Under the pieces are notes generated by a model. It saw nothing but the letters and a program-made list of their open reading frames with translations, ran no database searches and was not told where the DNA came from. A program made the translations under genes and the position numbers. Of a stretch of DNA of 64,000 bases, positions 47,749-49,435 are shown in pieces (within the stretch, counting starts at the first letter, position 1; each line of letters begins with the position of its first letter). This DNA comes from an uncultured archaeon (GTDB taxonomy: Archaea; Asgardarchaeota; Thorarchaeia; Thorarchaeales; Thorarchaeaceae): the NCBI GenBank assembly GCA_964610875.1, contig CAZSWP010000012.1, forward strand, positions 1 through 64,000. The letters run 5' to 3'.

Positions 47749-48345
47749 CTATTTGAAATAGTCAAAGAATTCTTCTGGCTCACTACCTTCCTCGATGAGT
47801 TCGATATCTTGAACTCCTACCCTCTCTGCATCGTAACGTCTTGCAATGATGGTTGCATCAAACTTCTCTCTGGCAGAAGCTTCTTCGCCACGCCAGACAA
47901 AGATATCATCCCAAGTATCCAACACAAAGACGTCATCGCTCTTTAGAGAATCGCGTGAGAGTGGTACTTCAGCAAAGAAGGTTTCATCACCTTCTCTATG
48001 TACGCGCCAGAGCTTGTACTCTTTGGTTTCCAAACGGACCTTTTTCAGAATTCCCTCTGTATCCTCATCAGTAAGCTCAAAGTCATCGAAAAGGCTCTTG
48101 AAGTGTTCTGGTTCCTGTCCGCCATCTATTCTATCAATGTCGGCATGTCCCTTACGTGCGGTATCTCGAAAGACCGCCTCTGCTGCTGTAAGGAACTTTT
48201 CATCTACTGAACTGTTCGGACCTATCCAGAGATAGATTTTAGGTCCTGCATCAACTAGATAACAGTCCCCTCGTCCAAACTTTCCAGGGTCCTTCATCAG
48301 AACAAGATTTCCCTTTTGCACGTGGTATACATCTGGTTCTCCCAT
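47749..48345 (-). CDS. Two-domain gelsolin-family protein (Asgard 2DGel type)
   Basis: GDCYLVD...IYLWIG..SS.DEK and L.SDDVFVLD....IFVW.G..AS..EK, EGSEPEEFF. Confidence 0.93.
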   Translation of the reverse strand: MGEPDVYHVQKGNLVLMKDPGKFGRGDCYLVDAGPKIYLWIGPNSSVDEKFLTAAEAVFRDTARKGHADIDRIDGGQEPEHFKSLFDDFELTDEDTEGILKKVRLETKEYKLWRVHREGDETFFAEVPLSRDSLKSDDVFVLDTWDDIFVWRGEEASAREKFDATIIARRYDAERVGVQDIELIEEGSEPEEFFDYFK

Positions 48346-48442
48346 ATACTGCTCTCCTGAGTATTTTATTTCACTCGGACATACCTAGAATGAGCCTTAA
48401 GTTATGTGTGGATGAACCTAAGTAGTATCTGTGTGATGGATA

Positions 48443-49435
48443 ATGCCTGAACTACCTGAGATTGAAACAATTGCTCACAAACTCTCAGAATTACTCATTG
48501 GAGAGGTAATCAAGAGAGTGCGTGTTGAGAATCATCTACTCATCTGTGGTAGTACAGTGGAAGACTTTGAAAAGATGTTGCTTGGAAAGGAGTTTCAATC
48601 GTTTAGGGGCGATGGCAAGTTCTTGGTAATGAAATTAGACTCTGACATTGAGATTGTGATTAACCGTTCATTGCAAGCTGGACAGATCTGGACACCGGAG
48701 TCTTGTCCGTCCAGAAATGGTACTGGAACGTTACTCCGTGGGGTCAGCACACAGATGTCAGGTGACCTATGAATTTATTCCGTTCTGAAGTATCTAAGCT
48801 CCCACAAAAAATGTCTAGGATTGTCCAGGTTTTTGGCAGCTGTTAACAACCCCATGCTTACTGGACGCATCAAGTTGACTAGTCCTTCTAAGAAACCCGG
48901 AAAGCAGGATGTGTTCAGAATCTTGGTGAGCAATCAGACACTGTGGTATACAGATAGGAAACAGATTGGACGCGTCTATCTTGTGAGAGATTCTGATTAT
49001 TCCACTGTTGCGGAGTTTGAAGGTCGTGGCCCCTCTGCATTGAGTCCCGAACTCACACTTGCTGTATTCAAAGAGAGGATAAGACGACACAGAGGACAGG
49101 TCAAAAATGTCCTGCGCAATCAGAGATTCGTAACAGGTGTTGGCAACGCCTATGCAGATGAGATTCTACTCTATGCCGGAATCCTACCTTTTAGAAAACG
49201 CTCTACACTTACCGACGATGAAACAGAACGTTTGTATACTGCCATGAGAGCAGTCCTCTCGAAGTTCAAGGAGATACTTATGGGGCGGTCTCTGAAAGAG
49301 ATTGGTCTTGAAAAGCGTGACTTCTTAATGATTCATGGCAAGACAAATGGAGCCTGTCCATTATGTGGCAATAGAGTTTCTGAGGTCAAATCCAAGCGAT
49401 TCAAGACAAATTACTGTCAGAAATGCCAAGTATGA
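48443..49435 (+). pseudogene. mutM: Fpg/Nei DNA glycosylase interrupted by a 186-bp insertion
   Basis: MPELPE start, GKFL, IVIN|PMLTG split by the insert, H2TH GVGNAYADEIL, C-terminal CPLCG...CQKCQ. Confidence 0.9.
48661..48850. mobile_element. 186-bp non-autonomous insertion (MITE-like) with imperfect terminal inverted repeats; ends ambiguous by a few bases
   Basis: Left TTAAC-N13-CTGGACA-gat-CTGGACA versus right reverse complement TTAAC-N13-CTGGACA-atc-CTAGACA; removing 186 bp restores VINPMLTG. Confidence 0.7.

Follow-up and report, generated by a model that had tools for sequence, protein, structure and literature searches.

The 186-nt interruption of fpg, a DNA-repair gene of an uncultured Thorarchaeota archaeon, is very probably a gene-less miniature derivative of an IS607-family transposon that was moved in trans by the transposase TnpA, that has knocked the gene out, and whose RNA is likely an omega RNA (ωRNA). 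This reading draws on an autonomous partner, a target rule, a covarying structure, and the disruption of the gene itself, and membership of the IS607 family is established at the level of defining sequence features. The window, by which we mean the whole 64,000-nt stretch of contig C12 that was analyzed, contains the complete split gene. The genome searched was a 3.75-Mb, 124-contig metagenome-assembled genome (MAG) that is 95% complete. Throughout, element sense refers to the tnpA/tnpB direction of the autonomous relatives, which corresponds to the minus strand of the window. Coordinates of all features are collected in Table 1.

The interrupted gene encodes an Fpg/Nei-type glycosylase, and both of its parts are recognizable. 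The 5′ part matches Pfam PF01149 (Fapy_DNA_glyco; E = 2.8e-14, profile positions 1–74 of 117), and the 3′ part matches PF06831 (E = 3.3e-16) and has the zinc-finger cysteines. Ten Fpg orthologues in other genera, all within the same taxonomic family (loci L032–L041), are uninterrupted, at 266–268 aa; the 5′ part aligns with all ten, and the 3′ part does so over its whole length at 53–65% identity. At the break point, the orthologues read (I/V)(I/V)NPML(T/A)G. Relative to them, fpg has a surplus of exactly 62 codons, or 186 nt, in agreement with the original prediction of a frame-preserving insertion of this length. The orthologues imply an empty site of ATTAACCCCATG, in which one GG is kept. 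Owing to a 4-nt junction microhomology (AACC at 48662–48665, and again at 48848–48851), the 186 nt can be placed anywhere from 48662–48847 to 48666–48851; the earlier frame-wise placement, 48665–48850, is one of the permissible choices.

The insert has a single in-frame stop, the TGA pointed out originally, which ends a truncated product of 109 aa. This single TGA is uninformative, since 14% of shuffles have one stop or none per 62 codons (P = 0.14); at that chance level, its reading as a recoding signal was rejected. Because the break lies within the conserved NPMLTG segment, in the N-terminal domain, the additional 62 codons and the TGA have almost certainly knocked out fpg, and the Fpg product is predicted to be inactive. 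Both halves of the gene are still open, though the fpg copy of the element belongs to an older, diverged subfamily, and the open halves are compatible with a recent insertion. A distant Fpg/Nei paralogue is left in the genome (contig C25, 28% identity, open frame of 275 aa). We also note that this paralogue, at C25:35553–36131, is followed about 600 nt downstream by another copy of the mini-element (C25:36716–36904).

Table 1. Coordinates of the split gene, the inserted element and its parts, and related loci elsewhere in the genome. Positions without a contig name are those of the window.
Feature	Position	Strand	Source or remark
Split fpg (Fpg/Nei-type glycosylase)	48443–49435	+	Contig C12
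fpg 5′ part, codons 1–74 (MPELPE...IEIVIN), N-terminal glycosylase domain to the break	48443–48664	+	Pfam, orthologue alignment
fpg 3′ part, PMLTG... to stop, 194 codons, open, H2TH and zinc finger	48851–49435	+	Pfam, orthologues
Conserved 189-nt block of the mini-element, GGGTTG...CAATGAACGG in its own sense	48664–48852	-	nhmmer positions 1–189, E 5e-59
186 nt gained by the gene: 184-nt interior (48666–48849) plus one CC (=GG)	48666–48851
CC (GG in element sense), right-end junction, proposed crossover dinucleotide	48664–48665		Flank tallies
CCC (GGG in element sense), left-end junction: crossover GG plus conserved target G	48850–48852		40/41 copies
Two direct CTGGACA repeats (TGTCCAG in element sense) near right end	48678–48694		Repeat search
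TGTCTAG and TGTCCAG (CTAGACA, CTGGACA in element sense) near left end, inverted motif	48812–48828
Only in-frame stop (TGA) of the insert	48770–48772	+
Covarying RNA module, four helices, putative TnpB guide-RNA (ωRNA) scaffold	48664–48768	-
H1	48763–48767 with 48742–48746
H2	48733–48738 with 48696–48701
H3	48723–48727 with 48710–48714
H4, pseudoknot	48704–48708 with 48680–48684
TATA-like box, TTAGATA here, consensus TTATATA, ~25 nt upstream of H1	48791–48797	-	Alignment columns 88–94
Host sequence (antisense of fpg codons 69–74), would-be guide	48648–48663	-
8.58-kb IS607-type unit	C18:16148–24728 (locus L057:1149–9729)		Ends match mini-element
TnpA gene of the 8.58-kb unit	C18:16218–16838
731-aa TnpB gene of the 8.58-kb unit	C18:22509–24704
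Seven TnpB genes with a different 3′ flank type	C78, C3 (two genes), C37, C25, C16, C12:85663–85809
Copy at alpha/beta hydrolase gene	C39:1544–1733
Copy at Na/Pi cotransporter-PhoU gene	C31:31949–32139
Copy in nitronate monooxygenase gene, 41 codons from start	C2:111376–111565
Copy near end of aspartate/ornithine carbamoyltransferase gene	C7:26796–26982

The insert belongs to a repeat family. BLAST and nhmmer profile searches of the genome returned 67 matches, 41 of which were full length (180–220 nt), and many of the others were cut by contig ends; the Thorarchaeota host carries about 60 copies of this gene-less IS607-family element. At least four subfamilies could be distinguished. One is old and diverged (73–93% identity) and contains the fpg copy, whose closest relative, at C18:8636–8824, is 93% identical. 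Three are young, with 5–7 copies each at unrelated loci, and the 98–100% identity within them points to recent movement. Of 24 further genomes from the same taxonomic family, 10 also had these element ends, often in at least 20 copies, and searches of other families in the phylum found none. Most copies measure 190, 191, or 220 nt, and the length of most inserts is not divisible by three. Roughly a dozen further genes with unrelated functions have been hit likewise, in either orientation relative to element sense. Element sense is antisense to the gene in fpg and perhaps in a family-less open reading frame (ORF) at C9:76071, and it coincides with the gene at the alpha/beta hydrolase (C39), the Na/Pi cotransporter (C31), and the NMO gene (C2).

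We then examined the ends of the element and the sequences into which it has inserted. On the fpg strand, all copies start with CCGTTCATTGTA and end with CAACCC, and the flanks beyond the conserved A are unrelated. The tips in element sense, GGGTTG... and ...AATGAACGG, are not inverted copies of each other in any of the 41 full-length copies, and neither terminal inverted repeats nor a target-site duplication was found among them; the original observations of no target duplication and of no transposase in the window were both correct. Both sides carry CC (=GG) in 40 of 41 copies; position 48663, an A on the fpg strand and a T in element sense, is likewise conserved in 40 of 41. Outward from the left-end GGG, the next base is A or T (element sense) in 34 of 41 copies, giving a target of WGGGT (W-G-GG-T) on the minus strand. 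Three of the conserved bases are target-derived, because the block is 189 nt long but the gene gained 186. Keeping 0 or 3 junction bases restored ORFs in 13 of 41 copies, compared with 2–5 for the other frames, where restoration was scored as a frame open for at least 40 codons both before and after the junction.

Inside the tips lie subterminal motifs of the CTGGACA type, two per end, inverted between the ends, and 15–40 nt from the tips. Those near the right end are conserved in all subfamilies, and the motif pair also occurs upstream of tnpA in Thorarchaeota IS607 loci. These repeats had been proposed to form an outer fold-back, CTGGACA on TGTCTAG/TGTCCAG. The inverted repeat does exist, but pairing of the left with the right repeats reaches 84.4% against 83.1% in shuffles, with no covariation. 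Because they are kept as motifs while their variable positions fail to covary, we regard the repeats as protein sites rather than as a stem, and they are predicted to be, probably, the binding motifs of TnpA. In the IS607 family, GG is found at both termini and the target has an invariant GG (PMC6188088); a (G)GG or TGGG target is preferred, there is no duplication, subterminal repeats are present, and excision is scarless (PMC6188088; 10.1101/2023.11.20.567912). Judged from sequence, the end and target features of the mini-element are hallmarks of IS607-family serine-recombinase transposons.

A candidate source of the transposase is present in the same genome. Contig C18 carries two TnpA genes, whose products each have an N-terminal MerR-type HTH ahead of a resolvase (serine-recombinase) domain. 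One of these genes is part of an 8.58-kb unit arranged as left end, TnpA (206 aa), an opposite-strand ORF of 1838 aa, a 731-aa TnpB, and right end. The left end of the unit lies 70 nt before tnpA and shares 79% identity over 48 nt with one mini-element end, and its right end, which extends to 24 nt past the tnpB stop, is 73% identical to the other over 70 nt. The search for further copies and an autonomous partner suggested alongside the original prediction thus found both. As the partner ends are only 73–79% identical, the direct parent, which would have closer ends, is absent from this assembly. In at least 12 Thorarchaeota MAG loci, tnpA is preceded by this left-end type at a distance of ~70 nt. 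In another genus (L068), the right-end module recurs at a TnpB orthologue with 51% identity and overlaps its stop, which is 4 nt before the element end. None of the eight other PF07282 (TnpB) hits in the genome carries the family right end: seven have related 3′ flanks of a different type, and the eighth, a weak hit with internal stops, has an unrelated 3′ flank. The second TnpA gene is part of a like unit, C18:60599–67782 (L058), with a left end, TnpA (204 aa), and an opposite-strand ORF of 1403 aa, which runs toward the contig end without a TnpB before that end. The 1838-aa and 1403-aa ORFs matched no Pfam family.

Structure was assessed in an alignment of 32 distinct copies, 26 from this genome and six from other genera. 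Four helices spanning ~105 nt at the right end had 94.4% of cells paired, with compensatory (two-sided) changes in 11 of 23 pairs; none of 500 shuffles reached the module values, and slid controls gave 29–47%. It is in this right-end module that covariation among copies, proposed as a check alongside the original prediction, was found, and the stems CGGAGT/ACTCCG, CCAG/CTGG, and GGTCA/TGACC that it described do exist and have covariation support across copies. Two further pairings did not survive: the GTGGG/CCCAC stem reached 60.8% against 59.9% in shuffles, and the match of CGTGGGGT with the downstream flank is due to chance, the flank being host sequence that is different at every other copy. 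Folded as RNA, the whole insert was not more stable than its shuffles (z = -0.29), and G-U wobble counts, set against A-C, were similar for the two strands (94.4% versus 92.9% paired).

The C18 element shares homology with the module in its final 70 nt. Upstream of the module, a TTATATA box is nearly invariant across the aligned copies, with a T-to-G change (TTAGATA) in the fpg copy and in C18:8636–8824; a promoter function is predicted for this box. Known ωRNAs overlap the tnpB 3′ end, end at the transposon end, and read into the flank (PMC10705468). For the function of the module, we lean towards a TnpB guide RNA, and if the RNA reads through the right end, the adjoining host sequence would be the guide. 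Transcription of the mini-element, loading of its RNA into TnpB, and homing would all be expected under this reading.

Taken as a miniature IS607 derivative, the insert can be given a mechanism. A full-length relative would supply the serine-recombinase TnpA in trans, and the mini-element would move by cut-and-paste through a double-stranded circle, with TnpA exchanging strands at the GG common to both element ends and the target. Such an exchange would produce neither inverted tips nor a duplication. In fpg, the target would have been 5′-WGGGT-3′ on the minus strand, which corresponds to the ACCCC of the Pro75 codon region. The element would have retained the TnpA-binding repeats of both ends, the TATA-like box, and a structured RNA whose end coincides with the right end. 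A stand-alone TnpB guide RNA is the most likely identity of this RNA, which would run on into the flank and, in fpg, be antisense to the gene. TnpB carrying this guide would cut the restored, empty fpg site, and the element would be copied back. A further-reaching version, which we consider improbable, makes the mini-element a self-promoted stand-alone guide-RNA gene, with the fpg copy programming the large TnpB of the 8.6-kb transposon against restored fpg; combined with scarless excision by TnpA, this would amount to an RNA-guarded reversible knock-out, or mutator switch.

Less probable still is the excisable switch offered in the original prediction, in which scarless excision and re-insertion by TnpA would toggle fpg, and hence the mutation rate, within the population. 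Such a switch is mechanistically possible. Donor sites are regenerated exactly when IS607 elements excise, at a rate of ~5% overnight for CboIStron in E. coli (10.1101/2023.11.20.567912). In this case excision would give back an intact fpg, and both of its halves remain open reading frames. Nothing in our data shows switching, however. Public DNA was available as contigs only, at ~5x depth, from three runs of one microbial-mat study; these contigs left 48538–48639 and the left junction uncovered and gave no joint across the insert, including in the two runs of the source habitat that were used for this comparison. The dozen or so unrelated genes hit similarly resemble random insertion rather than regulation, and a TnpB guide RNA would oppose loss of the element.

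We also considered a PATE of the IS200/IS605 type, which would depend on a Y1 (HUH) transposase and transpose as a single DNA strand, and whose hairpins would be the DNA recognition sites of that enzyme. Asymmetric ends, the lack of a duplication, and subterminal hairpins are all expected of such an element, and the wobble counts are compatible with DNA-level structure on either strand, yet we find this very improbable: Y1_Tnp (PF01797) had no match in the 95%-complete genome, the ends match elements that carry a serine recombinase, and instead of a conserved 4–5 nt target on the left flank alone, the same GG is present on both sides.

An RNA-level intron, also put forward originally, would be spliced from the fpg transcript by a bulge-helix-bulge endonuclease or by self-splicing as in IStrons, so that Fpg would still be made. 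The insert length is divisible by three, fpg is intact on both sides of it, and IS607/IS605 elements fused to group I introns (IStrons) are known (10.1101/2023.11.20.567912). This explanation is nevertheless effectively ruled out by the orientation of the copies within genes, which goes both ways (one in fpg and perhaps in the C9:76071 ORF, the other in the C39 and C31 genes). The lengths of most other copies likewise speak against splicing in frame, 189 nt is far below the size of a group I core, and the covarying helices stop at the transposon end rather than at splice-site-like junctions. The RNA module is antisense to fpg if read in the inferred tnpB direction, and no Rfam intron family matched either strand of 48400–49100 at E up to 10, the sole hit being a chance snoRNA (E 3.2). 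An assembly artefact, with the repeat misplaced inside an intact gene, deserves the least credence: public contigs do break at the repeat, and one joins the fpg copy to the left flank of another copy, but misassembly is excluded by the flanks themselves, two in-frame halves of a single gene that meet at one codon, and the right junction is bridged by independent contigs covering 48726–48993 (run X1) and 48662–49222 (run X2).

Several known kinds of mobile element can be compared with the mini-element. A classical MITE has, by definition, terminal inverted repeats and a target-site duplication. The mini-element is likewise small, multi-copy, non-autonomous, and able to land in genes, but it has neither of these two features; in the original proposal of a new MITE family, the multi-copy non-autonomous mobile element therefore stands, whereas the class does not, the element being an IS607 derivative. 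With IS607 transposons (IS607 of Helicobacter pylori, IS1535, ISC1926, and CboIStron of Clostridium botulinum), it shares the absence of inverted tips and duplication, GG at the ends and in a target with a preferred extra G, short subterminal repeats, a partner that combines a MerR-HTH/resolvase TnpA with TnpB, and a guide-RNA scaffold (putative here) ending at the right end. It differs from them in that the fpg copy is gene-less (189 nt) and resides in an Asgard archaeon, in the extra conserved T that follows the GG of its target, in having no group I intron, and in a partner of 8.6 kb with a giant extra ORF and an unusually long TnpB (731 aa).

Two other gene-less elements are close in kind. 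SMN1 of Sulfolobus islandicus, a non-autonomous element said to rely on the ISC1733 transposase (PMC3718332), can be likened to the mini-element by description, as an archaeal miniature element on which a transposase encoded elsewhere acts in trans; it is 320 bp long, against 189 nt here. Gene-less IS605-type PATEs that retain ωRNAs have already been described (PMC10055086), and the PATE-like IS200/IS605 elements of Geobacillus stearothermophilus in that work are similarly protein-free, with both ends and a guide-RNA scaffold, and take TnpB from elsewhere. PATEs, however, are moved by a Y1 transposase as single strands beside a TAM, whereas the mini-element has IS607-type ends and a GG crossover.

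As far as we searched the literature, the family appears to be new, and the kind of element is already known; the conceptual gain is small, because gene-less guide-RNA elements and the IS607 GG rule have both been published. Insertion of the mini-element explains a broken DNA-repair gene with no need for introns or recoding, and it accounts in the same way for other split genes of the Thorarchaeota MAG (Na/Pi cotransporter, alpha/beta hydrolase). In the annotation of Asgard MAGs, the family should be masked before pseudogenes, introns, or new RNAs are called. The ~60 copies of the family also offer a small natural collection of presumed guide-RNA scaffolds, each next to a different flank, for an unusual 731-aa archaeal TnpB, and this collection could help to define both the scaffold and the TAM of that nuclease. 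Finally, directly upstream of fpg, at 47749–48345 on the minus strand of the window, lies a gene whose 198-aa product contains two gelsolin repeats (PF00626, E = 1.6e-28); gelsolin-repeat genes are typical of Asgard archaea.
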